From positions 64,001 through 128,000 of the IMG/VR virus record IMGVR_UViG_3300025168_000034: a stretch of 64,000 bases of DNA; one strand, 5' to 3'. Origin of the DNA: a virus. Positions 22,362-64,000 of this stretch are shown here, piece by piece. The first letter of the stretch is position 1. Every line of letters begins with the position of its first letter. The notes below the pieces were generated by a model. It did not search any database. It worked only from the letters and a program-made list of their open reading frames with translations, and was not told where the DNA came from. The position numbers were made by a program, and so were the translations under genes.

Positions 22362-24836
22362 TTATGCGTTATCAAATGTTGCTCCAGTTGGTAAAACATT
22401 GAAGTCAAGTACGATGAATTCTGCAGCCTTTGCTGGTTGAATGAATATCTGACCTACCATTTGGTTTCTATCTATAACGTCTGGAGTATTGTTTGTTTCA
22501 TCCATTACTACTCTGTAAGCAAATAATCCTTGTCTCGATTTTACTGTCTCTAAGTATGGAGTTACAATGTTTAAGAATCTCTGACGAGTTTCAGTTGTAT
22601 TGTTCTCGAATACTAAGAATCTTGAAGAGCTTGCAATGAATTTTTTCAATGCGATTAACAATCTTCTAACATTTACTCTATCAAGTGCACTTGGCTTAGC
22701 TTGTAGTGTTTTCTGACCCCATACACATACTCCTTGGTTAGGGAATGTTGCTATTGGATTAATTCTGTTATCATAAAGATCGTCTCTATCTGATTGTTGA
22801 AGTTTCTTTTCAATGTCTATTGCTTCACTAATTCCACCTCTATTCAATCCAGCTGGTGCAAACCACTCATATGCTACATTGTCAGAGTTAGCGTACACTC
22901 TTGGAAGTACTACTGATGGTGGAACCCACACTGGTTTGTTCTTGTCAGTGTCTAGGATCTTAACCCATGGCCAATAAACTCCAGCAAAGCTTGTGTCTAT
23001 TGATCCGTTAGCTACTGCAGAGACTGCAGCTCCTATTGTGTTTCCTTGTACTACACAATCAAGTAGTGTAAAACAATCTCCTCTATCTTCTGCTACTTCA
23101 ATCATCTTGTTAGTGATTGCTGAATGATCAGCTATAGTAGCTCCAGGTGCAACAATTAAGTTAACATCTAATTCGTCCGGATTGTTTACTGTGTTTAATG
23201 CTTTGATGTATGCTTTTGCTCCTTTTGCACTTGCAGATGAACAATCCATTCCAAATAGGTTAGTGTTTAGTATGTCTGCTCCAGTCTTCTTTTCTAATGC
23301 TGGATCGTCTCCATCAAATCCACCTTGTAATCCTACTGTGAATTTTAAGAAGTTTGAGATGTCAACTCCAGCAAATGTTGATCCTGTGATGCTTGTGTTT
23401 GCGCTAATAGATGAGTTAGCATCTACTGCTGACGCACTTGCGTGAATCAAACAATCATCAAGGTTAAAGTCGTTATTTGGTAATTGAATTGCACCATTTG
23501 TTAACGGTTTAAGTAATTGGTTTGCATCATTTGTTGAAGCAAAATTGTGACCGTAGAATGCTTTTTTGTTGTATGCTGCGTTAATCTCTGTGTCTTGAGT
23601 GATAAATGATGCAGTTGGTACTGTTACAGCGACGGTGTTGAGTTTTGCGGTTATTGGTGATACGTAAGCATCATATCCAAATGGCTTAACATTTGCTGTA
23701 ATAGCTTTGTTTTTAACATCATCAACTGGGTTTATGTAAACATATTGTGATATGTTATCGTAATCTCCATTTATGGTTACAAGTCCAGCATCCGATACTG
23801 ATTTATACTTATCTCCAATTCTTCGAGAAATAAAGTTTGGAGAATCTGGATCCAAGTTTAGATTAGCAAACGATTCCAATACTGATGGTCGTTTATCTGT
23901 ATCACCGAACTCTCTTACTAATAGTGTAAATGAACCGTAATCACTTGCTGGATTACCTCCAGGTAGTAGTGTGTTTATAATACTAACTTTTATAGAAGTG
24001 TTAGTGTCAGTTCCGTCTGCTATAGTTTTTACTTTGAAAAGATCCAACTTAGCTCCACCAATTGTTTGTGATGTAATGTATGGTGTACATGCTGGTTGTG
24101 GATCTCCTGCATCGGAGCTCGAATAATCTACTAAAGTGTCTATTGATGCAGTTGCAAAATATATTGCAGAACCAGTTGCGCCAGTTGAGGTTGCAGAAGC
24201 TGCATTAGCAACAGTTGTTGTGAATTGACTAACATCAGCTTTTAAGAAGTTATCAAAGTATTGAAATGTGTATGCTTTTTTAGCTCCTTGAGGAGACTCT
24301 CCAAGTACATTTTTAAGGCTACTTACATTGCTTGGGTTAGCAGATGCTGTGTATCCACCACTGATAAAGTCGATTCCAGATCCAGACAACATGAAGTTGA
24401 AAGAAGATGTAAGACTAACTGCTTGATCAGCTGTTGTTGGGAAGCTAGAAAGTGTGTAATCGTGGCCGGTTGATGCTCCGTCTGTTGTGTTTTTTGTTGG
24501 TAATAAAGTTCCTACTACTCTCAAACCCCAAGATCCGGATGCAAGAATATGCAGACCATTTGCACCATATCCACCTTCCTGCATTACTCTAACGACAGTG
24601 ACAGTCGAAGCTGCATTTAAGTAGCTCTTAACTGCATAAGGTACATAAGTGCTCTCACTTAATCCTCCAAACTTAGCAATAAATTCATCAAAATTTTCTA
24701 CAATTGTAGGTACAAAGGCTGGGCCTTTTCTCGTAGGTCCTACAATAGCTGCTCCAATGGCAGCGATACCTGCGGGTAAAAAGGAAAGATCCTTTTCGTT
24801 TGTAAATACTCCTGGGCTAACAATTTTCTCGGCCAT
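22362..24836 (-). CDS. gp18: Contractile tail sheath protein (T4 gp18-like)
   Basis: SPGVFTNEKD, YWPWV, WFAPAGLNRG, WGQKTLQ, DRVNVRRLL, FENN, DETNNTPDVID. Confidence 0.95.
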   Translation of the reverse strand: MAEKIVSPGVFTNEKDLSFLPAGIAAIGAAIVGPTRKGPAFVPTIVENFDEFIAKFGGLSESTYVPYAVKSYLNAASTVTVVRVMQEGGYGANGLHILASGSWGLRVVGTLLPTKNTTDGASTGHDYTLSSFPTTADQAVSLTSSFNFMLSGSGIDFISGGYTASANPSNVSSLKNVLGESPQGAKKAYTFQYFDNFLKADVSQFTTTVANAASATSTGATGSAIYFATASIDTLVDYSSSDAGDPQPACTPYITSQTIGGAKLDLFKVKTIADGTDTNTSIKVSIINTLLPGGNPASDYGSFTLLVREFGDTDKRPSVLESFANLNLDPDSPNFISRRIGDKYKSVSDAGLVTINGDYDNISQYVYINPVDDVKNKAITANVKPFGYDAYVSPITAKLNTVAVTVPTASFITQDTEINAAYNKKAFYGHNFASTNDANQLLKPLTNGAIQLPNNDFNLDDCLIHASASAVDANSSISANTSITGSTFAGVDISNFLKFTVGLQGGFDGDDPALEKKTGADILNTNLFGMDCSSASAKGAKAYIKALNTVNNPDELDVNLIVAPGATIADHSAITNKMIEVAEDRGDCFTLLDCVVQGNTIGAAVSAVANGSIDTSFAGVYWPWVKILDTDKNKPVWVPPSVVLPRVYANSDNVAYEWFAPAGLNRGGISEAIDIEKKLQQSDRDDLYDNRINPIATFPNQGVCVWGQKTLQAKPSALDRVNVRRLLIALKKFIASSSRFLVFENNTTETRQRFLNIVTPYLETVKSRQGLFAYRVVMDETNNTPDVIDRNQMVGQIFIQPAKAAEFIVLDFNVLPTGATFDNA

Positions 24837-24867
24837 AGTGATATTATATTATAATTTTCTTGTTATT

Positions 24868-24875
24868 AATAAATA
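24868..24875 (-). promoter_or_regulatory. Putative late promoter variant TATTTATT
   Basis: 31 nt upstream of the sheath ATG. Confidence 0.5.
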
Positions 24876-24909
24876 TGTCAACTATAACCCAGAACCTAGT
24901 TTTTAGATG

Positions 24910-25170
24910 TTAATTTGGTGTAAATTCACCAGTAGTCATATCTAAAGAACCTACTCCATATTTTTCATTCAAATCATCAGCCAATTTCTTTTCTCTCTTA
25001 TTAATCTCTTGAATACCATTGGTGAGTGTTTCTTCTTGTTCGTTTAGCTTTTTTAAATACTCTTCGCTAGAGTTTTTTGCTAGCTTTAATTGAACAAACT
25101 GAACGCCTACTTGTGTGTATTCTTCTTGAATGGTCTTGATGCTTTGCATCTCTTCATCTGTAATCTTCAT
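24910..25170 (-). CDS. Coiled-coil hypothetical protein (86 aa)
   Basis: Heptad pattern, ends KYGVGSLDMTTGEFTPN. Late motif at 25186-25193. Confidence 0.7.
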   Translation of the reverse strand: MKITDEEMQSIKTIQEEYTQVGVQFVQLKLAKNSSEEYLKKLNEQEETLTNGIQEINKREKKLADDLNEKYGVGSLDMTTGEFTPN

Positions 25171-25185
25171 AACATTTTCCTTTAT

Positions 25186-25193
25186 TATAAATA
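25186..25193 (-). promoter_or_regulatory. Putative late promoter motif TATTTATA
   Basis: 15 nt upstream of ATG 25170. Confidence 0.6.
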
Positions 25194-25211
25194 TGTTGAT
25201 TTTTTTGAAAG

Positions 25212-26663
25212 TTACAATTCTATAAGAGTTGTGTCATTAGGATTGATAAGAATATTACCTTTGTTGGTGGTGTATATTTTTTTAGATGTTCCACCGCCAC
25301 TTGTAGCAGGCACTGTTACAGAAGTAGAAGTAACAAAACTACTAGTTGTTAGGTGGTGTTGATTTTTAGACTGAATTTTGTAATTATAAGTACCATCTGG
25401 TAATTCTAGATCTGCAAATACCGTTGGAACGAAACTACCAAAAGAAGCAGTATTTGCAGCAGATGGTGAAGAGCCAGATAGAGTTGCTATGTGAGTATAA
25501 CCACTTCCATCATCACGTTGTATATTATACATGATATCTTCGAGCCTATTATCTGATCCTGAGTTTTGAGCCCATGATAGAAATACGTTATTGGTTACAG
25601 CTGAAGCAGTAACGGCAGTAGGTAAGGGAGGTGTATCAACTGAAACTAATTCATACATCCAGGCATGATAACTTAACAAGTTTACAGTGTTCCCATCTCC
25701 CTCTTCATTTAATACTATTCTTAAATATTGTGTTTTTATTGGAGTACAAAAATCTAAAGTATAATAAGTATGAGACACATGTTGCTGTGTATTCTCATGA
25801 TCTACTGAAGCAACTAATGTCCAGTCATTGTAATTTCCGGTATCAGATTTCCATACTTGAAATGATCCTGGGTAGTAGGTAGCGTTACTGTATCCGGACA
25901 TTAGCATAGATCTGAATAATTTTGGTCCATCACCAAAACTTAAATCTAAACTACCAATATCAGCATTTGCATACCAACCATAATTTTCTCTTTGAGGAGA
26001 AGTTAATTTAGTTAAACTGGTGTTACTTCCTCCCTCAAAACTTCCGGTGACATTTGTTGTGCTTGGATCTAATAGATTAACATTCTTTATGTATTGGGAA
26101 GAATCCCATGCTGCGAACCCTGCTAATCCTCTATATCCACTCCCTGCAGATCCAGTTACAATTAAAAGTCTATAGTATCTGTAATAATCGTTATTTACAC
26201 ATGTCGCATCAGTGTCGTGTTGAATATTACTACCTTTATCTAGTGCAACTAATCCTGTCCAATTAGTAGCATCGTTTGAGGCACTAATTTGATATCCTGT
26301 ACCACAGAAATTATTATTTGATGCATCGGTAAATATAAAACTATCTAAACTAGCTGTATAACCTATCCCATTGTCAAGATCAAAATTAAGACCAATTGGA
26401 TCACCTACAGGGTTTGTATCTCCTAAATAAGCTTGTCCGGTGGTGGCATTCCATCTATAATGATTATCAAAAAACCCTAAGTCTTTAGCGTATTGTTTGC
26501 CGTTTAAAGTGCTTGAACCTTTTCTGACCCATTCAGGTCCATAATTAGCAGTACTACTGAATTGAGGACCGGTTGCTGTAACCGAAGATGAATATATTGC
26601 ATTTACCTGTTCATGTAAAGGCCAATGTGGAGTAGATTCATGTTTGAATAATGCTATAGACAT
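25212..26663 (-). CDS. Virion surface protein with two discoidin (F5/8 type C)-like domains and an FN3-like domain
   Basis: YQISASNDATNWT..YYRYYRLLI and FQVWKSD..DWT..TQYLRIVL; VFLSW..YNIQR..GTYNYKIQS. Confidence 0.6.
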   Translation of the reverse strand: MSIALFKHESTPHWPLHEQVNAIYSSSVTATGPQFSSTANYGPEWVRKGSSTLNGKQYAKDLGFFDNHYRWNATTGQAYLGDTNPVGDPIGLNFDLDNGIGYTASLDSFIFTDASNNNFCGTGYQISASNDATNWTGLVALDKGSNIQHDTDATCVNNDYYRYYRLLIVTGSAGSGYRGLAGFAAWDSSQYIKNVNLLDPSTTNVTGSFEGGSNTSLTKLTSPQRENYGWYANADIGSLDLSFGDGPKLFRSMLMSGYSNATYYPGSFQVWKSDTGNYNDWTLVASVDHENTQQHVSHTYYTLDFCTPIKTQYLRIVLNEEGDGNTVNLLSYHAWMYELVSVDTPPLPTAVTASAVTNNVFLSWAQNSGSDNRLEDIMYNIQRDDGSGYTHIATLSGSSPSAANTASFGSFVPTVFADLELPDGTYNYKIQSKNQHHLTTSSFVTSTSVTVPATSGGGTSKKIYTTNKGNILINPNDTTLIEL

Positions 26664-26666
26664 ATG

Positions 26667-27926
26667 TTAACTTTGTGTTATTTGCGATATTACGCTTGCA
26701 CTATAAGTGAGCGTGTATAGTTTGTTTATTCCATCTGATCCAGTAACTGACACACTTATTGGATTGCCGTCTTCAAAATTAGATGCTGAGTATATTATAT
26801 TGGTTATTTGTTGTGTTGCACCAAAGCTTTGAGTTACTTGTGTAACACTACTACCGCTATAAACCATACTTGCTGTTGTGTAAAGAATACGCGTTGTTCC
26901 AGCAGTTTCTAATCCTGATGATTGTACTACTCCGCTTGTGCTTATGTTACCCGATGCTGATATATGGTAATCTGTTACTATCGATCCTGATTCGTGTTGT
27001 ATTGTAAAATGGTCTTCCGCACTAGAATTATAGAATGTAACAAACTTATCTGCAGATACTTTTACGAAGTTATCTCCATCAATAGCAATTTGGTTATCAA
27101 CTCCTGAGATAAATTGATCTGACCCGTCCTGCGAACTATCAAAAGATATTTTGCCGGCGCCTGCTAGGAACACATTTTCAGCTAATATATTACCACTTGC
27201 ACTTATATTACCTGAGGCTGTTATATGTCCTACAAAATTTGAGTCACCAGTTTGATTAAATGGTCCTATATTTGTTAATGTGTTACTACCAGATATTGTT
27301 AAAGATCCAGTTATTGTAGTGCTGCCTGATACCGTTAGTGATCCAGTTATAGATTGATTGCCGCTAAAATTATTAGATCCAGATGTTGCAAATGATCCAG
27401 TTTGAGAATTTGTTGCAAATGATCCAGTTTGAGAATTATTTACAAATGATCCGGTTTGATTACTTGTAGTTACACCACTTCCATTAACCACAATACTACC
27501 TGATATAAATAAACTACCAGTATTGGTAAACGATCCAGTATTGTTAAAAGGACCGGTATTGCTAAAAGAACCGGTATTGTTAAATGATCCTGAATATTGT
27601 ATTGAAGATGTAGGGTTTGAAAAAGTAAAGGTTTCACCAAACTTTACAACTGTAGGTGCAGGCCCACTAACAGTTAATGCTGATGCTGATATGCTTGGAT
27701 TGCCAAATAAATTTGCAGCAATAGATGCTGTTTGTGCATATGATGAAGAAATCTCGTGTGTAATTTCGTGAGATGCTGATACTGCAAACGAAGCTGTTTG
27801 GGCATAGGATGCAGATGTTGCTGTACCAGTTATTGTTCCGGTAATGTTACCAGCAAACGATCCACTAAACGATCCGCTTAGACTATATGATCCTGTTGCT
27901 AATTGTCCTGGATTAATTATTGGCAT
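26667..27926 (-). CDS. Ser/Gly/Thr-rich fibre-like virion protein (419 aa)
   Basis: SASYA, NTGSF and SASGNI repeats. Lies in the neck/tail block. Confidence 0.6.
   Translation of the reverse strand: MPIINPGQLATGSYSLSGSFSGSFAGNITGTITGTATSASYAQTASFAVSASHEITHEISSSYAQTASIAANLFGNPSISASALTVSGPAPTVVKFGETFTFSNPTSSIQYSGSFNNTGSFSNTGPFNNTGSFTNTGSLFISGSIVVNGSGVTTSNQTGSFVNNSQTGSFATNSQTGSFATSGSNNFSGNQSITGSLTVSGSTTITGSLTISGSNTLTNIGPFNQTGDSNFVGHITASGNISASGNILAENVFLAGAGKISFDSSQDGSDQFISGVDNQIAIDGDNFVKVSADKFVTFYNSSAEDHFTIQHESGSIVTDYHISASGNISTSGVVQSSGLETAGTTRILYTTASMVYSGSSVTQVTQSFGATQQITNIIYSASNFEDGNPISVSVTGSDGINKLYTLTYSASVISQITQS
27384..27464. repeat. Three 27-bp tandem units (NSQTGSFAT-like)
   Basis: The first two units are identical (tgttgcaaatgatccagtttgagaatt). 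An 18-bp NTG[S/P]F array lies at about 27511-27590. Confidence 0.85.
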
Positions 27927-27928
27927 AT

Positions 27929-29634: not shown

Positions 29635-29635
29635 A

Positions 29636-30817
29636 TTATTTTATGTAAATGTGATTTGGAACCTTTGCCAATGTAGTTGACATTGCTGTAGCAATTGTTG
29701 CTTCTGCTTGCATCGAAGTCTCACGACCCATTGCTAATAGTATTTCTTTTAAATCTGTTATAAGTTGTGTTTTTCTTTCCGTTCCTTGTGATATTAAATC
29801 AGCTCCATTAAGTGTTGTTTCAGATCCTGGAATTGGTACAGTTGTATATTTTCCTCTAACCAATCCCAAAGTAGTCAAAGAAGAGCCTAAAGTATACTCA
29901 TATATCCATTGAACCCCTACATCTCTTATATCGCCAAATCGTATTCGATTGTAAGGTACATTTGCTAGATCACTAACCGACCCTGTAGGCTCTTTTAGCG
30001 GATTGTTTCTATCTTCAACTAAGACATAATCAAAAAACAATGTATATGTTGATTCTGGAATTGGGAATATTTTAAGTTTGTTGTTTTGTATTTCAAATGA
30101 ATATCCGGATTTTCTAATTTGATCATTCATCTCAATTGCTTGCATTCGCAATAAATCGGCATATATAGGCATCACTAAAAAAGATACAGCTGGTGAGTAT
30201 GACCCCCAACCAAAGCCATCTAACATAGTTTGCGATCCAGCTCCGGTATCAGTTTGTGGATCAAAGTATCTTGTGATTGCTGGAGGTGGATTATGAAAGA
30301 CTCTCTTGATTTCTATTTTTTTTCCAGACTCACTCACATCTGCATACAGTGCATTTAGATCATAACTCTGTGATGCTGCTGTAACCTCTATATGTCCACG
30401 CTTCCAATCTACATCACCACCTGATCCAATCTCTGAACCATAAGTTTTAGCCATTGCAATTGTACGTCCGAGGTTAGGTGTTACAGTTCTGCTGCTAGCA
30501 TTAGATGCTGTTGATGTGCCTTGTAGAGTTAGTATGTAATCTTTAGCATTATACATATTAACCATTGAGCTAAACTTTGTTATAGATTCTTCAAAGGCTG
30601 CAAAGAAGTTAAGGTCTTGAAGTTCAACATCCATAATAGGATATCCAAGACTCTTAGCACAGTAATCTGCTACACCATCTGCTTGTGTTTTAAATGTTGG
30701 ATCGTTATCGTAGAAACCAAAGGGAGTTGGTTTTGGTCCTACTGATGGACTGTCATAATAAGATGCTGAGACTGTTGTAAACGAGCTCGATCCGGGCCAT
30801 ATTGGTACACTACTCAT
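29636..30817 (-). CDS. Neck protein (gp13-like)
   Basis: LGYPIMDVEL, LGLVRGKY..PIPG..TLNG. Confidence 0.75.
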   Translation of the reverse strand: MSSVPIWPGSSSFTTVSASYYDSPSVGPKPTPFGFYDNDPTFKTQADGVADYCAKSLGYPIMDVELQDLNFFAAFEESITKFSSMVNMYNAKDYILTLQGTSTASNASSRTVTPNLGRTIAMAKTYGSEIGSGGDVDWKRGHIEVTAASQSYDLNALYADVSESGKKIEIKRVFHNPPPAITRYFDPQTDTGAGSQTMLDGFGWGSYSPAVSFLVMPIYADLLRMQAIEMNDQIRKSGYSFEIQNNKLKIFPIPESTYTLFFDYVLVEDRNNPLKEPTGSVSDLANVPYNRIRFGDIRDVGVQWIYEYTLGSSLTTLGLVRGKYTTVPIPGSETTLNGADLISQGTERKTQLITDLKEILLAMGRETSMQAEATIATAMSTTLAKVPNHIYIK

Positions 30818-31594: not shown

Positions 31595-31606
31595 GTTGTG
31601 GGATAT

Positions 31607-33171: not shown

Positions 33172-34803
33172 TTACAGCACGTTTAGATCTGCAACGTTAA
33201 TCTTACCGTAGAATTCTGGTCTAGTAACAAGTTTTGCATATCTTGTCATTACACCTCTTCTTGGAGTAAAATTCTTTGGATCGTAAACAAGAGGAGTAAG
33301 CATTAATGGCACGTATGGTGCGTATACTGCTCCAGTCTCTAAGAACTGGCTTCCTCTGAATCCCATCAAGATGGTATTCTCTTGCATGTAAGGGTTTTTG
33401 TAAACATCATAAGCGTTATTAATAGCACCTACTTGTCTTACACCCATTGCATATTTCATCTTGCCTGTTCCGTCAGTCGCAGCATATCCAGGAATTGACT
33501 CAAGGATAGTTGAGATTTTTGGAGAACAAACTAAGAAGTTAGCTCCACCTCTCAGAGTCTTAGCATGGATCTCGTTAGATACTTTCTGTACTTTAGTACC
33601 TAAAGTAGCAAACCAAGTACCTTGGATATATGCTTGACCACTAAATTGTGATGCCTCGAATAGATTAGTAGCAGAGTTAAACTCTTGACCTACTTTAGCA
33701 GACCAGAAGTCTGTAGAAGCAGCTGATGAAATCAACATGTCTAAGATCTCTAAGTCAATCTCCATAGAGACATACTCAGATAACATAGAAGTCAACTCAC
33801 CTTCAGCATCTACTGAATGGTATGCGTTAAGGTCTTGAGCGAACTCAGGAGTCCAGCTTGCTTTCAACTTACGAGTCTTAGCAGTTACCGGAATACTTCT
33901 CATTTGCAATTCAATGCTTGGGATATTCAAGTCTGTATCCAAGTCTCTGTTTGTAGCAGATACTGGTTTAGCCTCGAAGTCACCTCTATCATCATTCGTA
34001 GGTTGTACTGAGAATGAAATTGCTGCACGGAAAGGACTAAGTGTCACATGTGTAGCTGGTGCTAATGATTCAGATGCTACAACGAATTGTACGTTTCCAC
34101 CAACGATTTGAGTAAACTTTTCAATGACGTCTAACTCAACTGAACCAGATAGTAGTTGGAATGATCTAACTGCTTCTTTGTCTAATCCAGTTCCGTTAGA
34201 AGAGGAAAGAGATGCAGTAGGAACAATTACTGTATGGTAATTAGCAATTGATGCTGTAAAATCACCATCGTAAAGTACAGTGTCAACACCTACAGATCCA
34301 GTGTGGATTGTATGTCCAGTTGTTGCAATTTGGTTGTTAATTGAATATCCAAATCGACCTGCTCCGTAAAGTCCATCAGATGGATCAGCAGTAGTGTCAG
34401 TGACACCTTGTAGTGTACCAGTTTGGTTTTTCTCCGTTGGAGCGAATCCAAATGGATTTTTATCGTTAGCGTATTTGAAATCTAGGTAGAATACTAGTCC
34501 TGATGGTAAGTTCATTGGTTGAACGCTGACAAATTCCTTTGCTGCGATCTCCGCATAAACTCTCCTGATCAAAGGAAGAGCTACTCCTGTCCACTGCTCA
34601 TATCCGGCACCTGCAGTACCAGCTGTTGTAGCAGACCCCTCTTTCAAAAGCTGTTTTGCTTGGTTCTCTAAAAGAACAGACACTGTTGCCTCTTCTTGTT
34701 TGTCACCAAGTCCTTCTAATAGGCCCGTTCTGGACCATTTGGAGATTAAAGCCTTATTTTCGTGGCTTCTGTTTGTTTCTCCCATTCCTTCAAATAAATT
34801 CAT
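33172..34803 (-). CDS. gp23: Major capsid protein (T4 gp23-like)
   Basis: LLENQ, VSVQPMNLPSGLVFYLDF, AKTRKLKASWTPEFAQDLNAYH, YAPYVPL, FTPRRGVMTRY. Confidence 0.97.
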   Translation of the reverse strand: MNLFEGMGETNRSHENKALISKWSRTGLLEGLGDKQEEATVSVLLENQAKQLLKEGSATTAGTAGAGYEQWTGVALPLIRRVYAEIAAKEFVSVQPMNLPSGLVFYLDFKYANDKNPFGFAPTEKNQTGTLQGVTDTTADPSDGLYGAGRFGYSINNQIATTGHTIHTGSVGVDTVLYDGDFTASIANYHTVIVPTASLSSSNGTGLDKEAVRSFQLLSGSVELDVIEKFTQIVGGNVQFVVASESLAPATHVTLSPFRAAISFSVQPTNDDRGDFEAKPVSATNRDLDTDLNIPSIELQMRSIPVTAKTRKLKASWTPEFAQDLNAYHSVDAEGELTSMLSEYVSMEIDLEILDMLISSAASTDFWSAKVGQEFNSATNLFEASQFSGQAYIQGTWFATLGTKVQKVSNEIHAKTLRGGANFLVCSPKISTILESIPGYAATDGTGKMKYAMGVRQVGAINNAYDVYKNPYMQENTILMGFRGSQFLETGAVYAPYVPLMLTPLVYDPKNFTPRRGVMTRYAKLVTRPEFYGKINVADLNVL

Positions 34804-50798: not shown

Positions 50799-52261
50799 GA
50801 TCTGTCTGCTGGAAATGCCACTTCATTTGTAATATTACCTCCAATCGTTGTCGGTGCTAGTAAGGATGGATCAGTTGCTACACCTACTTGGCAAAATTCA
50901 ATATCATCAATAATACATCCAAAGTAAGAATCAGAATCTAAACTACCACTAGCTTCAAACACTATTTGAGCATCTAATCCATACTGCACAACGTTGATAT
51001 TGAAAGATTCTAATTGGAATCCTGTCGCAGGGTTTATAAAAGACATTGCTGGATTAACGTTTTTTATTCTCACAATATTATTATCAGGTGGATAAAATCC
51101 CGCTGTTCCTGCTACTCGCTCATTTATAAGACCAACATTTGGTTGAATATTAAAAATGTAAATTAACAATTCACTACCTGCGCCTGTGTCAGGATACATA
51201 TCTATATTAAGGTTTCTTTTTAGATTGAACTTAACATTAAAAATTCCTCCATTTGTATTAAAAATACCTCCAGTACTTTGAATTGGATTTGGAAGTGGAT
51301 ACATGTCGCTACAAAACCAATTCACTCCTGAGGACGGATCAGCAGTAATCGAATCATCTCTCGTTGCTGTTACAGTGGGGAAAAATAATCGTCGTCGTTT
51401 TAATTCGTTTGACAGGTTTATTTGAACAGCAGACGTTTGTAGATGGGATTGTGAAGCATATCCAGCTAAGGATGCACTCACATCTTGTCTTGAAATTCCA
51501 ATACCTCCTGCAAGATCGTAGAACCTTCCATCAAACGATCCAGTTGAAGCATCTCCAAATGTTATCATGCCTGGATTAGTTCCGTTTGCTAATGGAACAC
51601 CTCCTCCTAGAGTTACACCTCCTACTTCAGTGTATTTAGGAATACCTGCACTAAACGCTGATGGTTGAGCGTAAACGTCCGAGGGTGTTGGTTTGTTAAT
51701 AGTAGCTGGATATTCTACGGTTCCACCTCCAACACTACTAGCAAATGTTTTATATATCATATTTGAAGCTGTCATTAAAGGCTCTACAGCTTTCCAGCTT
51801 GAAGTTATTGGATATTTTACAAAGCCATAATCACCTCGTAAGTCACCTCTAAAAAAACTAGCACTGTTATAGGTAAAAGTAAAAATCATAGTATTGTTAA
51901 AACTACCACCACCTCTGGCTGTTGAGTCAATACTAAATCCAGATTGAGTTGGTACAAGACAATTCCATAAATAATCTGCTGCAGGAGATCCCCACGGCAA
52001 TGCTCCTGCACTACCAGATATAATTGCAGGTTCTCGTGTAAGAGCTGTGAGAGTGTCAAAGTCGAGCGAGGTGGCAATGGCGTTGTTGTAATAAGCATTT
52101 GATATACTTCGATTTTGTCCATCCCAATCTTCGTTTACATTTGCCATGTTATTAGGCCATCCTCCAACTATTTTGTTGCTGCCAGTAGGACACCACTTAT
52201 AATAAAAATCAAATGCATGACTATATGTCACTCTTTTATTTTTTAAATCTGTAAAACTCAT
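50795..52261 (-). CDS. Putative virion structural protein (488 aa)
   Basis: G/S/T/N-rich, beta-type composition, late operon. Confidence 0.55.
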   Translation of the reverse strand: MSFTDLKNKRVTYSHAFDFYYKWCPTGSNKIVGGWPNNMANVNEDWDGQNRSISNAYYNNAIATSLDFDTLTALTREPAIISGSAGALPWGSPAADYLWNCLVPTQSGFSIDSTARGGGSFNNTMIFTFTYNSASFFRGDLRGDYGFVKYPITSSWKAVEPLMTASNMIYKTFASSVGGGTVEYPATINKPTPSDVYAQPSAFSAGIPKYTEVGGVTLGGGVPLANGTNPGMITFGDASTGSFDGRFYDLAGGIGISRQDVSASLAGYASQSHLQTSAVQINLSNELKRRRLFFPTVTATRDDSITADPSSGVNWFCSDMYPLPNPIQSTGGIFNTNGGIFNVKFNLKRNLNIDMYPDTGAGSELLIYIFNIQPNVGLINERVAGTAGFYPPDNNIVRIKNVNPAMSFINPATGFQLESFNINVVQYGLDAQIVFEASGSLDSDSYFGCIIDDIEFCQVGVATDPSLLAPTTIGGNITNEVAFPADRS

Positions 52262-52273: not shown

Positions 52274-54400
52274 TTAAAACGATCCACTCTCTATGGACTT
52301 AAAAGATTGGAATATAAAGTGGTTAGTTTGACAAGTGTTTGATGGTATTTCAGCTTTCACATTAACCGATAGATCATTTAAAAACGTTGTATATTCTGAT
52401 TGCTCTCCTGTAAAGTTAAAGTACTCTATTTTAAAATCAAGGGACTGTGATATAGAAAGTATGTCGCCAATCTCTGTATTCATTGGAATTTGAAATTGTA
52501 CTAAGTTTGGTGAAAATCCATTTATAGCTAAGGGTTTTATGCTAATCTCACTGCAATAAGCACTTCCAGTCACATTAACAAAATCTATAGGTTTAACTCT
52601 AAAGACTGGTCCTCCTAATCCAGACGAGTCTGTTTTAAAATCAAACTCAACTCTACCATAACCTTTCTTAACATCTCTATTGTTTTGCACCCTTCCAACA
52701 AACTTTCCAAAACGATTAACTCCTCCTCCGTATCTATCCTTCTCAAGATTGATATCTTTTAGAAATGCTTTAGGAGATGCGTTTGGAATTGCTGTGTTTG
52801 TGTTTAAAGGATCACTATTCATATACACTTCAAGTTCTGTATTAGGTTCTAAGGTTAGGTTAAAACCTAATGTATATAATTGTTCTAAATTATAGTTTTG
52901 ATCAAATTGTGTTGTAAACAAACCAGAGTGTGTAAAATCAGCTTCTATCTGTACACTCTCGTGCAACGATGAGCTGTTAATTGATGGAATTGTTCCTTGA
53001 TATATAGCGTTTGGTGTTTCTACAAGATAGGACCAATAACTATCTGCAATTTGCTGAGATGTGAAGTGACCTATTAGTCTAAAGTCTGAATCCCTTTTTG
53101 CATATGTAGTTTGGTTTGGGAATGCTGCATCTGTCAAGTATTCGACAGGCTTAATTATAGAGTCATATATCACCTTAAAATCTCCAGTAGAAGTTCCTTT
53201 TCGATAGGATGTTTTAATTCTATAAACATCTCCACCTATAGGCTTCATATCAGAAAACGTAGTCTCTAAATAATTCATGTTTACAGTTGAGCTAGTTACA
53301 AACTCTTGATCAGACGGTAAATACGCAATGCTTGCAGTAAATTTGCTTGTTTCACGAATTCGTTGAATTGTTGTTGATCCACCACTTAAAGCATTAGCGT
53401 TAAGTACAACCAACTCAATTGGTTTGCTAATTCTCATTTCTGTGTCAGTCATTATTTCTACAATGTTGGCTGTGAACAGTGTTAATTGATCTGATGTGCT
53501 GCCTGATATAGCAAAGTGGGATGGTAGTGTTGGTTTAAATTCTGCAGGTGTACTGGCGGCATCAAAAAATTGAAATGTGCCTCCTAGAAAATCTTTTTGT
53601 ATAGACTTATTTGCAGACTTAACCGTCGTACTAAATCTAGTTGTCAAATCTCTACGATATCCGTTTTGGATTTCAGAAATTTCTGATCGTAGTGAAGAGT
53701 TCACACTATTAACTGTTCGTGGTTTTTGTAGTGGGTTGAGTAATATTCTTTGAAGATTAACATCTAAAATCTCTTCGCTTGATTGGAAATCTAAGTCGTA
53801 TCCTTTAAAATTAGGTGTCAGTATTGTAAAATCATCTGCACTAGACGTGTATTGTAAAAACTGACTACCACTCAAAGCCGCAGCGTTTGTAAACTCTCTT
53901 TCTGGTGTTTGTACTTGTACAATGTCAATTAATGGTGGGTCGTTAAACACCAACTTAGAAGTGTTTCTTTCCATCGGAACAATATTAACAGCTCTTGACC
54001 ATCTAACATTGTAATCTCTGTTGACTGTTTTTGGGATTGGATTACCTTCCAAATCAACCACAGCTTCACCTACCAAATACACAACTGCTAGACCTTTTGC
54101 AGTAATATCGTACACTTCGATAGTTATGTAATAATCGTTAAAACGATCTACATAATTTGTAACTTCTGCAAACATATTATCACCATTTGCATCAATCACC
54201 TCTATATCGATATCACTATCTGCTCGAAGGTTTAGACCGTTTCCTTTTAATCTCATTATGTAGCGACCACCACCTAAAGTGTCAGAAAACTCTGTGATCT
54301 GAAAGTAGTTAGGTGAGTCAGGACTCGTATCTTCTATAAGATAATCTCTCGTTGAGTATCCTCTCGGTTGTGGTTTTTTATAAAAAGAAACAAAGCTCAT
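52274..54400 (-). CDS. Putative virion structural (baseplate/tail) protein (708 aa)
   Basis: Beta-rich, late motif variant upstream, several SGS/TGS/TAS motifs. Confidence 0.55.
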   Translation of the reverse strand: MSFVSFYKKPQPRGYSTRDYLIEDTSPDSPNYFQITEFSDTLGGGRYIMRLKGNGLNLRADSDIDIEVIDANGDNMFAEVTNYVDRFNDYYITIEVYDITAKGLAVVYLVGEAVVDLEGNPIPKTVNRDYNVRWSRAVNIVPMERNTSKLVFNDPPLIDIVQVQTPEREFTNAAALSGSQFLQYTSSADDFTILTPNFKGYDLDFQSSEEILDVNLQRILLNPLQKPRTVNSVNSSLRSEISEIQNGYRRDLTTRFSTTVKSANKSIQKDFLGGTFQFFDAASTPAEFKPTLPSHFAISGSTSDQLTLFTANIVEIMTDTEMRISKPIELVVLNANALSGGSTTIQRIRETSKFTASIAYLPSDQEFVTSSTVNMNYLETTFSDMKPIGGDVYRIKTSYRKGTSTGDFKVIYDSIIKPVEYLTDAAFPNQTTYAKRDSDFRLIGHFTSQQIADSYWSYLVETPNAIYQGTIPSINSSSLHESVQIEADFTHSGLFTTQFDQNYNLEQLYTLGFNLTLEPNTELEVYMNSDPLNTNTAIPNASPKAFLKDINLEKDRYGGGVNRFGKFVGRVQNNRDVKKGYGRVEFDFKTDSSGLGGPVFRVKPIDFVNVTGSAYCSEISIKPLAINGFSPNLVQFQIPMNTEIGDILSISQSLDFKIEYFNFTGEQSEYTTFLNDLSVNVKAEIPSNTCQTNHFIFQSFKSIESGSF

Positions 54401-58531: not shown

Positions 58532-58535
58532 AGAC

Positions 58536-58566
58536 TAAATATACGGAAAACTATTCGTTTAACCAA
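58536..58566 (-). promoter_or_regulatory. Bacteroidota-type promoter TTG-N20-TATATTTA
   Basis: 4 nt upstream of the primase ATG. Confidence 0.65.
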
Positions 58567-59317: not shown

Positions 59318-59318
59318 G

Positions 59319-59981
59319 TTAGTAAACTTTTAAAAATGATAGCATTTTAGGTTCGTGCAAATATTCTAAGTGATCAATTCCAAAGTACTTTGCTTTAGTC
59401 TTGGACTGCTCATACTCGTCAAAACTGTCTTCCGCAATGAGTGGTTTGAGATCTGCATATACCTGCTCCCAATCTTGGTTAAGAATTAGATCTTCTAAAA
59501 AGACAACATGTTGCTTGTATAACTCAAAATCGTGAAAGTCGTGTTCGATGTGCATTAATTCAAAAACCTTGCCATCTTCTATCCAATCGATACAAAAGTC
59601 AGCCATATACTTAGGTTTAATGTTAACTAACTTTTGGAGACGTTTGTTGTGTTTTGCAAACTCTTTAAGTTGTTCTAAAGCTTCGCCAGCGTATCCGTAT
59701 CTGGTGTTTAGGTGGCAGTGGTCTAAGAAGATGTGTGCGTGTGGCACGTCTTGAGACATCCAGTCTTGAAAACATGCTGAGGCGTCTGTTGGACGTCCAG
59801 GTACGAGTATGTGTCCAGGAATGTTTGACTGTTTGTGATACTCTCCCTCTACGTAAGTTAGCTCATAGCCAATACGATCGAAAAAGTCTGGAATAATCAT
59901 TTTATCAAAGACGGTTTCATCTTCTAAAGGTTTTGTAATATATGGATAATCGACTAGTTTGTAATTAAGTTTATTTATCAT
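59319..59981 (-). CDS. Hypothetical protein (220 aa)
   Basis: Long ORF overlapping the upstream stop. Confidence 0.7.
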   Translation of the reverse strand: MINKLNYKLVDYPYITKPLEDETVFDKMIIPDFFDRIGYELTYVEGEYHKQSNIPGHILVPGRPTDASACFQDWMSQDVPHAHIFLDHCHLNTRYGYAGEALEQLKEFAKHNKRLQKLVNIKPKYMADFCIDWIEDGKVFELMHIEHDFHDFELYKQHVVFLEDLILNQDWEQVYADLKPLIAEDSFDEYEQSKTKAKYFGIDHLEYLHEPKMLSFLKVY

Positions 59982-62907
59982 ATCTGACTATAAAGGTTGT
60001 ATCTACGTTACTTGGTAATTTTAATGGGAATCCTAGTTTTGCAACTGCTAACATTTCTCCATACTCATTATATAATCCAATTGCTGTTACGTATGGTTTG
60101 AAGTCTGATCCAGTTGTGAATGGTCTAAACTCGTATTGGTTTGATGCAGGATTGTATTCTTGTACTGTTGGATTATTACTTCGATTAAACTCTCCTGCCC
60201 CAACTGTGCATGCTATTTCTTTTTCATAAATTGTATGAGTTCCTCTTGCTACGACTTCTTTTATGTCCATGTATCTTGATATAATTGATCCAAGTACCAT
60301 TTGTCCGTGATTATAAAACACATTGCCTACAATTGTTGTAGCTCGTCCTAGTGTATGGTAAGATAAAAATCTATCGTTACTACTCATTAATCCAGCATAC
60401 ATTTTAATATTGTCAATTAACCCATCAAATCCTTGGTCCGCTGACACACTGTTACCTATGTGTATATCAGACTTATTAGAGCATGCAGCTCCATCTATAA
60501 CATCAGGTGAGGTTGTTTGTAGTACGTTATCAATATACATCATCAACGTAGAAGAGCTTAGTTGGCATGTTACGTGATGCAGTTGATTCAATGTTAAGCT
60601 ACCAGAAACTTGGGCTTGTTCAAATAAATTATCGCGCTTAAAACGTAACATCGTACTTCCAGAATCCATAGTAATAGCATATGGTGTTCGATTGTCGCTT
60701 TTGTATGTGAAGACATTACCATTTATATCTACTCCATGATTTTCAGAGGTGCCTTGTTTGTTTAAGATAGCAGACCCTGAAGGATGTATTGAGTGAGCGG
60801 TAGGTCTTATCATGAAAGTGATTGTAAAATCGTTATTCTCAAAATTGTAAGACTGTCTATAGTTTTGTACAGTTGAAGGTTGTATGTGTATGCTTGATGA
60901 TAAGCTGCTACTAAACGTAGGAACAACTCCTAGTAAGTCAATAGGTTGAGGTATTGGTATAGTGGCTCCAGCAATATCTGTGAATTTTATATTTTTGTAA
61001 TGAGTTTCCATTACCCAATTACCGCGATTAAAGCTGCTAGTTAAGTTAATTGCACCTTTACCGTTGTATTTGTACAAATCTCGAGTAGGCCACTCTCCTA
61101 CACTATTAATCGATAACGACTCGCTCACCCTTGTAGATGGAGATATTGGTGAAATTAATCCTCCAGACACAAAAAGATTACCACTTAGGTCGTCTTTTAT
61201 TTCTATGGATTCATTATTACTACCACTTATATTGTAATTTGCTTTAATTGACAAAGAGGATTGCTGAATACCCTCTCCAAACTTTGTTTGTGCAAGATTA
61301 ACAATATATGCTTGATCTTCTAAATCTCTAATTTGAGTGTTTATATTCCCATTACCAAATGCTGCTTTTGTGTTGCTATAAAAATCTTCATAAAATAAAT
61401 GGTTTACAGATTTGTGTACAACACGTTGAAATTTTTTATTAACTGTAACGGGTTCGTAGTATTGGAAGTGTGGATTGCCTTGGTCGAATAGTGTGTTAAG
61501 GGGGTTGTAGCTTGGATGTGATGGTGTTGGATTGTAATCTGCTTTATACACAGAAAAGGTTGGTTCTGAGTTTACATCAAATTGAATAAACCTTTCGCTA
61601 TATGATGAGCTAAATCCTATAAAAATATCTGAACTTGATGCATTAGTTTTTAATGTGGTTCCAATTTGCAAATCTCCTTTTGTAGCTCCAAAATGATCTG
61701 GGTCAGATATTGCATATGTGTCGGGGTTAATTGTGAAAAACACAGACTCTTTCAAGCTGTTAGTAGATCCAGCAAATATTCCTATTGTTGCTGGTGTTTG
61801 ATTGGTTTGGATTGTGGCTTTGACTTTGGGCTTTAATGCTACCCACTGTCTTGCATCAATTACTTTATCAAATGACGCTACATTGTACGGTGTATCTACA
61901 GCATATAAATCAATACCAACTTGTCCATCATTATATACAACATGCACTTTACTCTCTTGTAAAGTTGACGATCCAGAAATAAAGTTAGTTTTATCTATTA
62001 AAATGTCTGCAACGTTGGATGTTATTAGTTGAGATATTGCGGTGTCCTTAACACAAAACAATTTTCCGTCCTCAAACAATGCAAAATATCTATTCTGGGT
62101 TCCACAATATAAAAAGGTTTTGAGAGCTGTTGGTGTTGTAGCTCCATAAACACTTGCTCCATATACAGCGTATCCAAACGCACTACCTGGACTTACTGAT
62201 GAGCTAAAGCTAGCTGTTAGAGCTTGTGGAAGTGATCCAGTAAATGATACGGCATAAGCTCCTAATGATCCGGAAGCTGCTATTGCTAACACTTTGTCGT
62301 TTATAGTTTTACCTTCTGCATTTACAGCACTAAACGACGCTGTTAAGCCTGCATCAATAGACGAAGGCATAATTAACCCTTCAACACCTCCAAAGTTTCC
62401 TGTGCTAACAGCAAAAGTCTTTGATGTTACACCTAGAGTTCCAGCAACAAAAACAGTATCTTTTGCTCCGCTGGATAACTCGCACACGGATATACTCTTT
62501 ACGTCTGTTACCTTTGAGCTTGTGTATGGTGTTCCTTTTACAAGTAGATTGTTGTATGGATCTACTGCTCCAAAACCATTTGCAGTTGCTGCTGCATGTA
62601 TATATTGCTGTGTGTGCCCTATACCATAAGCAGTTACTCCGTTTGGATTTGGTGTTATTACATCGTTTAGAATTTCATAACCGTCATCCTGGTTTAGACG
62701 TAATAATCTGCTACTACTAACATCAGTGACGTAAAGTCCTCTAACTCCAGCCTTACTTGATCCTTCTAATGATCCAACACTAACTGGGCTAGCCTGAACA
62801 TTTGAGTAATAGGTTTTATAGCAAACAGTGCTAAACCATTTCTTATGTGCTCGAAAAGGCGTAAGCCTTATATCGGATGCGTCTAAATTTTTAAAAACTC
62901 CTGCCAT
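59971..62907 (-). CDS. Virion structural protein with a LamG/concanavalin A-like domain (978 aa)
   Basis: FTITFMIRP..LHHVTC..MYIDNV..IGN..FDGLIDNIKMY; C-terminal YVTAIGLYNEYGEMLAVAKL. Confidence 0.7.
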   Translation of the reverse strand: MAGVFKNLDASDIRLTPFRAHKKWFSTVCYKTYYSNVQASPVSVGSLEGSSKAGVRGLYVTDVSSSRLLRLNQDDGYEILNDVITPNPNGVTAYGIGHTQQYIHAAATANGFGAVDPYNNLLVKGTPYTSSKVTDVKSISVCELSSGAKDTVFVAGTLGVTSKTFAVSTGNFGGVEGLIMPSSIDAGLTASFSAVNAEGKTINDKVLAIAASGSLGAYAVSFTGSLPQALTASFSSSVSPGSAFGYAVYGASVYGATTPTALKTFLYCGTQNRYFALFEDGKLFCVKDTAISQLITSNVADILIDKTNFISGSSTLQESKVHVVYNDGQVGIDLYAVDTPYNVASFDKVIDARQWVALKPKVKATIQTNQTPATIGIFAGSTNSLKESVFFTINPDTYAISDPDHFGATKGDLQIGTTLKTNASSSDIFIGFSSSYSERFIQFDVNSEPTFSVYKADYNPTPSHPSYNPLNTLFDQGNPHFQYYEPVTVNKKFQRVVHKSVNHLFYEDFYSNTKAAFGNGNINTQIRDLEDQAYIVNLAQTKFGEGIQQSSLSIKANYNISGSNNESIEIKDDLSGNLFVSGGLISPISPSTRVSESLSINSVGEWPTRDLYKYNGKGAINLTSSFNRGNWVMETHYKNIKFTDIAGATIPIPQPIDLLGVVPTFSSSLSSSIHIQPSTVQNYRQSYNFENNDFTITFMIRPTAHSIHPSGSAILNKQGTSENHGVDINGNVFTYKSDNRTPYAITMDSGSTMLRFKRDNLFEQAQVSGSLTLNQLHHVTCQLSSSTLMMYIDNVLQTTSPDVIDGAACSNKSDIHIGNSVSADQGFDGLIDNIKMYAGLMSSNDRFLSYHTLGRATTIVGNVFYNHGQMVLGSIISRYMDIKEVVARGTHTIYEKEIACTVGAGEFNRSNNPTVQEYNPASNQYEFRPFTTGSDFKPYVTAIGLYNEYGEMLAVAKLGFPLKLPSNVDTTFIVRYDK

Positions 62908-62911
62908 TACA

Positions 62912-62919
62912 TATAAATA
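62912..62919 (-). promoter_or_regulatory. Putative late promoter motif TATTTATA
   Basis: 4 nt upstream of ATG 62907. Confidence 0.65.
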
Positions 62920-62932
62920 TGTCGATAAAGCA

Positions 62933-62960
62933 AATCCCTTCCATTATGTTGAAAGGGATT
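62933..62960 (-). terminator. Hairpin, possible weak terminator
   Basis: AATCCCTT...AAGGGATT stem with a poor T-tail. Confidence 0.4.
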
Positions 62961-62984
62961 ATTGGCTAGTTTGATTATGTGATT

Positions 62985-64000
62985 TTAGTAGTCTAGCTTA
63001 ACCTTCACTAACGCCTCTCTGTTAAAGCTTTTTAGTAATGGTTTGCTTAATTTAGCTACAGCTACCAGTCTATTATTGTCATCGTACATTCCGATTGTTG
63101 TAACATATACACTTGGATTTCTCAACATGCTTGCATGTTTAAATTGGCCAGTGCTTCCAGATACAAAGGTTGGATTGTTTGAAAAATTAAAATTCTTATT
63201 CGTTACACGGACAAAGTAGTGTGTAGACGTTATTTTCTCTTCGCTTCTTGCGGCAAAGTATGTAGATGCTGAGATGTACATTGAAGCAGTTACAGAGTTT
63301 TTAGGTTGTGTTCCAGCTGCTGATAATGTTGTTGCATTACCAGTATTAAAGTCCATCCCTGTCTCTGTTTTTAGTCTTGTTGCGTTAAACACTAACACAC
63401 CATGATCTGGATAAAATAATCCATACTGAGTATTAGATGCTGTTACAGCTCCGGAGCCACTAAAAATACCAACTACACGTCCAGCTTCGTTTACTGTAGG
63501 TGTTTCTTCTTCTCCACTATTATCAATAAATGTTAGGTATGAGTTGATTCCATTAAAAGCAGTTAAGGCTTCTGATGCAGATGCTATTCTTAACTCCCAG
63601 TTTCCTGGATCAATTTTTTGTCTGAATCTAGCTCTAGCAACATTAATTACTAAAATATCGTCAGGTGTATCACTTCCAAAAGTAAATGCAGTATCTGTGG
63701 GTGGTAAGAGTTGGTTTCGGTATTGTGAGTATATTGCTCTGGTAGGAGTATCGTTTGCGTTTTGTCCTACAGTATTAGGATCTCCAAAAGACCCGCTTCC
63801 TAGTCTGTTTCCATAAGCTACAGCAAACTGGACAGCTGCAGTAGCTGACTCATTCGTGTCTTGTGGATTTCTGTGAAATGTATTTACATAATAATCACCA
63901 GACTGCGACACCTGTGCTGATGATGTAAAGAACCCTATTCCATAGGATCCACCGTAAGACTGTGAATATGGATTCATATTTTCAGACCATACTGGTTGTG
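62985..64000 (-). CDS. Virion structural protein, probably 5'-truncated at the right window edge
   Basis: The frame stays open upstream of ATG 63977 (QPVWSEN). C-terminal YVTTIGMYDDNNRLVAVAKL is paralogous to the next gene. Confidence 0.7.
   Translation of the reverse strand, partial: QPVWSENMNPYSQSYGGSYGIGFFTSSAQVSQSGDYYVNTFHRNPQDTNESATAAVQFAVAYGNRLGSGSFGDPNTVGQNANDTPTRAIYSQYRNQLLPPTDTAFTFGSDTPDDILVINVARARFRQKIDPGNWELRIASASEALTAFNGINSYLTFIDNSGEEETPTVNEAGRVVGIFSGSGAVTASNTQYGLFYPDHGVLVFNATRLKTETGMDFNTGNATTLSAAGTQPKNSVTASMYISASTYFAARSEEKITSTHYFVRVTNKNFNFSNNPTFVSGSTGQFKHASMLRNPSVYVTTIGMYDDNNRLVAVAKLSKPLLKSFNREALVKVKLDY

Follow-up and report, generated by a model that had tools for sequence, protein, structure and literature searches.

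A lineage-specific [ST]-[GA]-S tripeptide in the outer virion proteins of T4-like phages as a candidate sequon for phage-encoded O-glycosylation

Why would the outer proteins of a T4-like virion, which are built on unrelated folds, share one short tripeptide? This question is raised by IMG/VR virus record IMGVR_UViG_3300025168_000034 (hereafter the query), a single contig of 165,609 bp that is 98% complete, and in particular by its bases 64001-128000. This stretch of 64,000 nucleotides is called the window below, and its long open reading frames (ORFs) all lie on the minus strand. An initial annotation made from the letters of the window had reported that the pattern [S/T]-[G/A/S]-S recurs in structural proteins and had read it as a recognition site for a modification of the virion surface. 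The observation has been confirmed: the tripeptide, best written [ST][GA]S, is in strong excess, about fourfold over chance, in the outward-facing virion proteins of the query and of thousands of uncultured relatives, and is a trait of its phage lineage and not a property of the folds that carry it. Because this excess is found in outer proteins and because the same phages encode a transferase related to the flagellin-modifying enzyme GmaR, the tripeptide is probably a site of sugar attachment, as judged from sequence comparison.

Over the whole genome, and with local shuffles of 20 residues as reference, 13 virion ORFs contain 127 copies of [ST][GA]S for 29.7 expected (z 16.8), and the remaining 185 ORFs contain 29 for 44.2 expected. 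These 13 are the only ORFs in excess genome-wide, and all of them belong to virion modules (three are located beyond the end of the window, Table 1). For the nine ORFs named in the initial annotation, which had proposed a comparison with composition-preserving shuffles, [ST][GAS]S reaches 3-4 times its expectation when whole proteins are shuffled, and the excess persists in blocks of 40, 20 and 10 residues, the 106 matches exceeding both the 33-37 expected and the count of every one of 2000 shuffles. Taken singly, all nine but the neck protein are significant. The same words emerge when every tripeptide is scanned: SGS (28 vs 6 expected), GSF (16 vs 3), TGS (21 vs 4.7) and TAS (19 vs 4.3) come first in the motif-rich proteins, and they again head the list in a scan of the whole proteome with no protein preselected. 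In the query proteome, LNE (34 vs 16 expected) and LKE (46 vs 26) are also in excess.

The earlier per-protein counts were all reproduced. The five matches of the major capsid protein, which had been placed in one central stretch, fall within residues 168-221, and there are none elsewhere in this protein. Similarly, the sheath protein, credited with about 12 matches nearly all between residues ~100 and 540, has 12, of which 11 are at residues 100-536. The three matches described in the neck protein correspond to those with Gly or Ala in the middle, a fourth having Ser. Portal, tube and tape measure have none, whereas ribonucleotide reductase (RNR) has two and the helicase and the RecA-like protein have one each. 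ORF 54420 (SbcC-like) and ORF 57608 (a primase), which are not virion proteins, have no motif either.

Such an excess might arise artificially, from amino-acid composition, from stretches of low complexity, from repeat proteins or from a word at the DNA level. The motif-rich proteins are indeed rich in Ser, Thr and Gly, a quarter of the counts comes from a single fibre, and Gly-Ser is often encoded by GGATC. This explanation is nevertheless very improbable. Composition and low complexity are ruled out by the local shuffles, a threefold excess surviving even in 10-residue blocks, and by permuted or variant words, some of equal composition (TGT, TAT, GSS, SSG, GST, TSG, AST and TSA), none of which is enriched. 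Eight of the nine ORFs are individually significant, and Ser/Thr-rich proteins of the query which are not part of the virion have the motif at or below expectation. A DNA-level cause is ruled out as well: codons at all three motif positions follow background usage, with both Ser codon families in their background proportions, and GATC and GGATC show no excess over Markov expectation. Since the codons of the motif match the background, the signal lies at the protein level.

The distribution of the motif among relatives separates lineage from fold. The query encodes a gp23-type capsid protein which shares 52% identity with those of the cultured Flavobacterium phage immuto and Microcystis phage Mel-JY01, 39.5% with that of the cultured Rhodothermus phage RM378 and 51% with that of LR756508, an uncultured phage of 484 kb; the T4 capsid protein aligns with it over the conserved C-terminal half only. 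At least 598 relatives of this capsid protein were found in IMG/VR. In a tree based on capsid, terminase, sheath and helicase, LR756508 is sister to the group formed by the query, immuto and Mel-JY01, with RM378 outside. Genome-wide, [ST][GA]S is in excess in the query (156 observed, 73 expected), immuto (179, 93), Mel-JY01 (175, 102) and RM378 (81, 38), and not in T4 (46, 59). Whole-proteome word scans agree, with SGS, GSF and TGS on top in immuto and both SGS and TGS within the first four words of RM378. In Mel-JY01, SGS (89 vs 43) comes behind words of one repeat protein, an 805-residue product (635-3052) made of S-G-T/T-S-G low-complexity repeats which dominates the tripeptide statistics of this phage and was excluded from the word comparison. 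The hosts of the motif-bearing lineage span three phyla, as written in the records.

T4 shows no motif excess in its sheath, its capsid, its long fibres (gp34 and gp37 included) or its word scan. Neither is there enrichment among ~48 Tevenvirinae (24 observed vs 27.6 expected in gp23, 40 vs 65 in gp18 and 38 vs 38 in terminase). A general property of T4-type structural folds or fibres is thus ruled out by T4 and by the gp23 and gp18 proteins of these Tevenvirinae. LR756508 is the most informative case of all. Its structural genes are syntenic and alignable with those of the query and its sheath protein, 40% identical, is also 824 residues long, yet it has one motif in the sheath against nine in the query, one against four in the capsid, none against three in the neck and four against 24 in the large baseplate or fibre protein; no protein of its proteome was flagged for motif excess.

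The motif has a defined grammar. Position 1 is Ser or Thr, position 2 is Gly, next Ala and only weakly Ser, and position 3 is Ser alone, Asn, Asp and Thr not being enriched there; these core preferences are partly circular, as the proteins used were picked by motif count. Of the pattern [S/T]-[G/A/S]-S first described, the Gly or Ala in the middle and the final Ser thus stand, while the Ser in the middle is weakly enriched. Order matters: TGS is found 40 times for 18 expected and SGT 11 times for 18, and TAS 34 times for 17 and SAT 19 times for 17.5. The residue before the motif is preferentially V, I, L, F or A and the residue after it F, L, V, I or Y, with K, R, D and P avoided. Hydrophobic residues occupy these flanks (before/after) in 62%/65% of the virion instances, compared with 41%/31% of the 29 instances which occur by chance in ORFs outside the virion set, the background being 39%. 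The initial annotation had stressed that the motif is unlike the Bacteroidota sequon D-(S/T)-(A/I/L/V/M/T), and this holds true: position -1 is hydrophobic, the middle residue is Gly or Ala and Ser is obligatory at position 3. Asp at position -1 is absent from immuto (0 vs 1.1 expected) and from RM378, and charged residues make up 5% of position -1 in the query set. In RM378, TLS, TIS, TFS and TTS are enriched too, and the core of the motif there looks like [ST]-x-S with a looser middle.

The motif is also restricted within proteins. In the capsid protein, matches start at residues 168, 183, 196, 200 and 219 (nucleotides 34141-34302 of the window), inside a variable insertion which covers residues ~120-285. 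An alignment of 84 capsid sequences contains 357 motifs in 50 columns, of which 347 (97%) lie in this insertion, where 84 are expected, and 10 in the rest of the protein, where 56 are expected. Likewise, the 11 sheath sites at residues 100-536 are outside the C-terminal core (residues 609-823, corresponding to 439-653 of T4 gp18). At the level of domains, this distribution fits a surface location. Among IMG/VR relatives, the motif is in excess in the capsid (345 observed, 140 expected), in eight sheath proteins (52, 17) and in 52 neck proteins (157, 43), and it is depleted in 44 portal proteins (2, 21.8), in the large terminase (4, 25) and in the family of ORF 30868 (1, 8.6), although these family sums pool related sequences and the depletion figures are inflated by shared ancestry. 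Nine semi-conserved capsid sites have either an intact motif, with SGS, SAS, TGS and TAS interchangeable, or an unrelated tripeptide such as QIT, NIV, EGV or RDT. Partial motifs with two of the three residues are found 85 times at these sites for 251 expected under independent variation. The capsid sites are all-or-none; shared ancestry inflates the contrast and its direction is clear.

Several motif-rich proteins which lacked annotation contain discoidin, LamG or Ig domains, as expected for fibres and for the periphery of the baseplate. The product of the ORF at 25212 is probably a fibre or receptor-binding protein and that of the ORF at 59971 probably a baseplate or fibre protein; since both have carbohydrate-binding-type domains (Table 1), they are likely receptor-binding parts of the particle. 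The protein encoded at 26667, which has no PHROGs or Pfam match, is presumably a beta-structured fibre. It is made of six-residue repeats of the types T-G-S-F-x-N and S-G-S-L-T-I, and the spacing between its matches is mostly 6. A 1053-residue protein of immuto with 53 motifs may be its closest analogue. Orthologues of the virion protein encoded at 62985 have four motifs in immuto and seven in Mel-JY01.

These features can be read in structural terms. The tripeptide would then be a lineage-specific habit of structure or surface chemistry in exposed beta-strands and fibre repeats, with two hydroxyls on one face and the small residue inward, and the transferases described below would serve another purpose. 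The hydrophobic flanks and the i/i+2 pattern fit a beta-strand, and in a capsid model of low confidence (AlphaFold2, 31 sequences, predicted local distance difference test score, pLDDT, of 50.7) the motifs are at strand ends. The use of the motif with a period of six in the fibre encoded at 26667 and the large middle residues accepted by RM378 (TLS, TIS, TFS) point the same way. We regard this explanation as rather unlikely. If beta propensity were the cause, Thr would be preferred at position 3, and the symmetry of such an arrangement would make SGT equivalent to TGS; neither is seen. A tight beta-turn (type II') would favour Asn, Asp or Thr at position 3 and bar Ala, which is ill-suited to it, from position 2, and this candidate was rejected. 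Homologous sites alternate between the motif and unrelated tripeptides, QIT, NIV or EGV among them, which shows that the fold can do without a small residue in the middle. In addition, the orthologues of LR756508 and of T4-like phages fold without the motif, and the depletion in the capsid core, portal and terminase is left unexplained.

If not the fold, what would read the motif? The initial annotation had found no candidate modifying enzyme in the window, which is correct for the window and not for the genome. The rest of the genome, where it had suggested looking for glycosyltransferase clusters, contains a packed minus-strand cluster of 22 kb devoted to sugar nucleotides and glycosyl transfer. 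It encodes a GDP-mannose 4,6-dehydratase (9e-120), several epimerase/reductases, two DegT aminotransferases, a class III aminotransferase, a split thiamine pyrophosphate (TPP) enzyme, a dehydroquinate synthase (DHQS)-like cyclase, a short-chain dehydrogenase/reductase (SDR) and a CMP-type cytidylyltransferase-cupin fusion. It also encodes lineage-specific transferases, namely a GT29-like protein, a GT2-GT10 fusion and a GT2 enzyme. The content of the cluster differs between relatives, sugar pathways included, and three transferases alone are conserved: a GT4 enzyme of 499 residues (GT-499; 49% identity in immuto, 39-43% in Mel-JY01, 29% in RM378), a GT4-like enzyme of 444 residues (GT-444; 48% in immuto, 44% in Mel-JY01, a weak syntenic match with E 5e-4 in RM378) and a GT2 enzyme of 210 residues (GT2-210; 45% in immuto, 36% in Mel-JY01, 30% in RM378). 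None of the three has a predicted membrane segment. Each has ~6000 to at least 8000 homologues in the protein collection searched (E <=0.001 or 1e-5), the best 120 being 56-96% identical.

GT-499 and GT-444 contain an EX7E motif (residues 331-339 and 300-308, respectively) which is invariant in their homologues. The model of GT-499 (pLDDT 83) adopts a GT-B fold and its best fold matches are GT4 enzymes, the first being the chlorovirus enzyme 3oy2 (sequence match 1.7e-8; Foldseek E 2.7e-15, TM-score 0.59/0.74, identity 17%). The assignment of GT-444 to GT4, made from sequence, relies on a weak PF00534 match and on its Atlas neighbours. The sizes of 499 and 444 residues had suggested a GtfA/GtfB-like pair; this candidate was rejected, as sequence and fold searches with GT-499 return GT4 enzymes of the generic kind, the chlorovirus enzyme, MshA and HepE ranking best. 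In Mel-JY01 (83435-84929) and in an IMG/VR relative (G004:62711-64209, at a TGA), GT-499 is split in two ORFs, and another IMG/VR homologue (G005:51117-52484) has one in-frame TGA. These split forms could be functional GT-B halves, decaying genes or sequencing errors.

GT2-210 is the most suggestive of the three. It has a GT2 catalytic domain of GT-A type (PF00535, 1.6e-12), and its best relative among solved structures is the glycosyltransferase domain of GmaR (22ao; 1.8e-6 for the single sequence in phmmer, 6.1e-11 for a profile built from 24 homologues), the profile alignment covering positions 3-180 of its 210 residues. A DADE motif (D93, A94, D95, E96) and H171-E172 of an HEQL motif are invariant in the 24 homologues and aligned with DADE and HEQL of GmaR. 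The next matches are GalT1, from the Fap1 adhesin pathway, and the peptide glycosyltransferases ThuS (which we take to be 7msk) and SunS, followed by TarS (presumably 5tz8) and ArnC. GT2-210 has no TPR or antirepressor domain, and its homologues of 205-217 residues have PF00535 only. Small and limited to this domain, it is thus related to the GmaR catalytic domain and does not qualify as a GmaR orthologue.

In Listeria monocytogenes, the N-terminal domain of GmaR, a GT2 domain of ~180 residues, adds GlcNAc to flagellin in the cytoplasm (PMC9638930). Like GT2-210, GmaR is soluble and cytoplasmic, and it modifies Ser/Thr of a protein which is later exposed on the surface of an extracellular filament, in parallel with the role proposed here for GT2-210. 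It differs by its single substrate, whereas the proposed targets of GT2-210 are many and its activity on protein is predicted by analogy. No sequon for GmaR was met in the GmaR literature searched, which did not cover the mapping of flagellin sites.

The distribution of GT2-210 follows that of the motif. Among 50,697 GenBank phage records, it was found in immuto, Mel-JY01 and RM378 only, and each of the three relatives with a completeness of at least 90% has it. The query, immuto, Mel-JY01 and RM378 have both enzyme and motif, while LR756508 and T4 have neither, so that GT2-210 tracks the motif across these six phages, with few independent transitions; a co-occurrence of this kind had been suggested as a check by the initial annotation. 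T4 has none of the three conserved transferases, and LR756508 is without GT2-210 and GT-444. Upstream of the virion module, only four genes shared by the query and RM378 are detectable by BLAST, and these are GT-499, GT2-210, RNR and the helicase.

The all-or-none, ordered and flank-dependent pattern of the motif needs a reader and does not name it. The reader might then be other than a glycosyltransferase, for instance a kinase, an assembly chaperone or an enzyme that transfers acyl or phosphoglycerol groups, with the glycosyltransferases acting on host envelope glycans or small molecules, in line with the acceptors of GT4 and GT2 enzymes, which are usually lipid-linked or small. Such a scenario is unlikely. 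No candidate modifier besides GT-499 and GT2-210 is found among the four upstream genes shared with RM378, GT2-210 is nearest to protein and peptide glycosyltransferases, and the loss of GT2-210 and GT-444 in LR756508 coincides with the loss of the motif. A role of the transferases in DNA glycosylation was also considered. The nucleosides in an immuto DNA digest are only dA, dC and dT, plus fdPreQ1 which replaces dG (bioRxiv 10.1101/2023.04.13.536721), and the query genome encodes no hydroxymethylase of the thymidylate-synthase family nor a member of the dCMP-hydroxymethylase family. Given these nucleosides and the absence of a thymidylate-synthase-family hydroxymethylase in the query, this role is unlikely. 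The transferases may, on the other hand, act on envelope glycans of the host.

The explanation that we favour, with a probability of about 0.5, is that hydrophobic-[ST]-[GA]-S-hydrophobic is a sequon for phage-encoded, cytoplasmic O-glycosylation of surface virion proteins, predicted from sequence, in which the GT2 enzyme would start the glycan, the GT4 enzymes extend it and variable modules elaborate it. The targets would be the insertion domain of the capsid protein, the outer domains of the sheath, the neck, the periphery of the baseplate and the fibres. By analogy with GmaR, GT2-210 would attach the initial sugar to a Ser or Thr within the motif, after which GT-444 and GT-499 may extend the glycan and the GT2-GT10 fusion, the GT29-like protein and the other GT2 enzyme may add further sugars, lineage by lineage. 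The GDP-, CMP- and amino-sugar genes of the phage would supply these transferases, the outcome being a variable sugar coat, and selection would favour the motif on exposed domains and act against it elsewhere. The modification site proposed by the initial annotation is thus supported by an ordered motif, by its occurrence on unrelated folds, in outward-facing proteins and variable outer domains, and by the co-occurring soluble transferases; it is weakened in the fibre encoded at 26667, whose sites double as a structural repeat.

Several points weigh against glycosylation. The correlation between enzyme and motif is confined to one clade and counts no more than two independent transitions, namely a basal gain and the loss in LR756508. 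GT2-210 is without the TPR domain thought to be used by GmaR for substrate recognition, and GT2 and GT4 acceptors are mostly non-protein. The hydrophobic flanks suggest a beta-strand context, and hence possibly a structural habit or a poor access of the enzyme to the folded protein, and the six-residue repeat of the fibre encoded at 26667 includes the motif. Lastly, RM378 has a single motif in its capsid protein and a single one in its sheath, and is more permissive at the middle position. A broader proposal is held slightly more tentatively: an abundant, mostly marine and freshwater T4-like clade may coat its whole outer surface, from capsid, neck and sheath to baseplate and fibres, with O-glycans written by a short linear code. 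A minimal GmaR-like GT2 enzyme would read this code and GT4 enzymes with variable sugar modules would extend the glycan, the code being selected for on exposed domains and against in buried or interface regions.

The features on which this analysis is based are collected in Table 1. Among them is the element CTATTTATA, of which the whole query genome has 32 copies on the coding strand and two on the opposite strand. Its usual position, 15-20 nucleotides upstream of the starts of structural genes, makes a promoter element of the late type probable. The operon which holds the conserved glycosyltransferases is headed by one copy, and others precede RNR and further non-structural genes. This element was considered as a sign of late expression of the transferase operon and set aside as a guide to timing, since RNR and non-structural genes have copies too.

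Table 1. Location of the features discussed. Coordinates refer to the window unless the genome is specified; matches are to [ST][GAS]S unless Gly or Ala in the middle is stated.
Feature	Coordinates	Strand	Length (residues)	Matches	Expected
Tail sheath protein	22362..24836	minus	824	12 (9 with Gly or Ala in the middle)	
Protein with F5/8 type C (discoidin) carbohydrate-binding domain (1e-8)	25212..26663	minus	483	10	3-4
Fibre-like protein	26667..27926	minus	419	32	~9
Neck/head-tail adaptor, gp13-like	29636..30817	minus	393	4	
Major capsid protein, gp23-type	33172..34803	minus	543	5	
Portal protein, negative member of the set	39829..41670	minus		0	
Virion-module protein, no known family	50795..52261	minus	488	8	~2
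Virion-module protein, no known family	52274..54400	minus	708	8	~2.6
Protein with LamG/ConA-like lectin domain (2e-12)	59971..62907	minus	978	19	5-7
Virion protein (ORF continues to 64064, past the window)	62985..64000	minus	359	8	~2
Motif-rich virion ORF beyond the window end	genome 128876-133537				
Motif-rich virion ORF beyond the window end	genome 136052-139384				
Motif-rich virion ORF beyond the window end	genome 154857-156173				
Sugar-nucleotide and glycosyltransferase cluster	genome 21142-43624 (window -42858 to -20376)	minus			
GT2-210	genome 39402-40034		210		
CTATTTATA, tube	22340	minus			
CTATTTATA, neck	30837	minus			
CTATTTATA, portal	41686	minus			
CTATTTATA, further example	genome 44507	minus			

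How does the proposed system compare with known ones? In 2023, Freeman and colleagues reportedly described, in Cell Host & Microbe, the O-glycosylation of mycobacteriophage virions by phage-encoded glycosyltransferases. As proposed here, phage transferases act on capsid and tail proteins inside the host cell, in the cytoplasm and ahead of lysis. The glycans are said to be carried by C-terminal extensions of two siphovirus subunits, those of the capsid and of the tail tube, whereas in the query, a T4-like myovirus, at least 13 proteins share a short internal motif which the tube lacks; the enzyme families differ as well, and the query is known from its genes alone. In chloroviruses PBCV-1/NY2A, whose B736L-type GT4 enzyme corresponds to 3oy2, sugar-nucleotide genes and transferases for the capsid glycan are borne by the virus, as proposed for the query. 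Their glycans differ in being N-linked, at atypical sequons, to the double jelly-roll capsid protein of a eukaryotic virus. To our knowledge, glycosylation of virions by phage enzymes is known only in mycobacteriophages and, among eukaryotic viruses, glycosylation by the virus's own enzymes is known in chloroviruses and giant viruses.

Bacterial systems offer further parallels. GtfA/GtfB, which act on serine-rich repeat adhesins, and the TibC/Aah heptosyltransferases, which act on the beta-helix repeats of AIDA-I/TibA, are soluble enzymes that act, ahead of export, on numerous Ser residues within repeats of S-x-S or beta-helical type. Their substrates are reminiscent of the fibre encoded at 26667 and of the [ST]-x-S core of the motif; unlike them, the motif-bearing proteins of the query consist mainly of globular domains that are not repetitive. 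No signature of a heptosyltransferase (GT9) was detected. The general O-glycosylation system of Bacteroidota similarly uses a three-residue sequon on many proteins, and the relative immuto has Flavobacterium sp. LMO8 as its host. This sequon needs Asp, which the query motif is without, Ser at position 3 being obligatory instead. Furthermore, Bacteroidota O-glycosylation is periplasmic and acts on exported proteins, while virion proteins fold in the cytoplasm, and, unlike this host system, the motif tracks the phage lineage irrespective of host phylum.

A full-text literature search returned no earlier description of this sequon, of a comparable one in a tailed phage, or of virion glycosylation in this clade. 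Because immuto is in culture, the reading of the motif as a glycosylation sequon is directly testable. If it is true, an undescribed sequon and enzyme set would be added to phage-encoded virion glycosylation, together with a minimal protein O-glycosyltransferase with a three-residue target, possibly useful in glycoengineering. The motif would be the first sequence-readable glycosylation code for phage particles, from which glycosylated surfaces would be predictable in metagenomes, and it would change the view of adsorption, particle stickiness, resistance to proteases and grazing, and antigenicity in very abundant aquatic phages.

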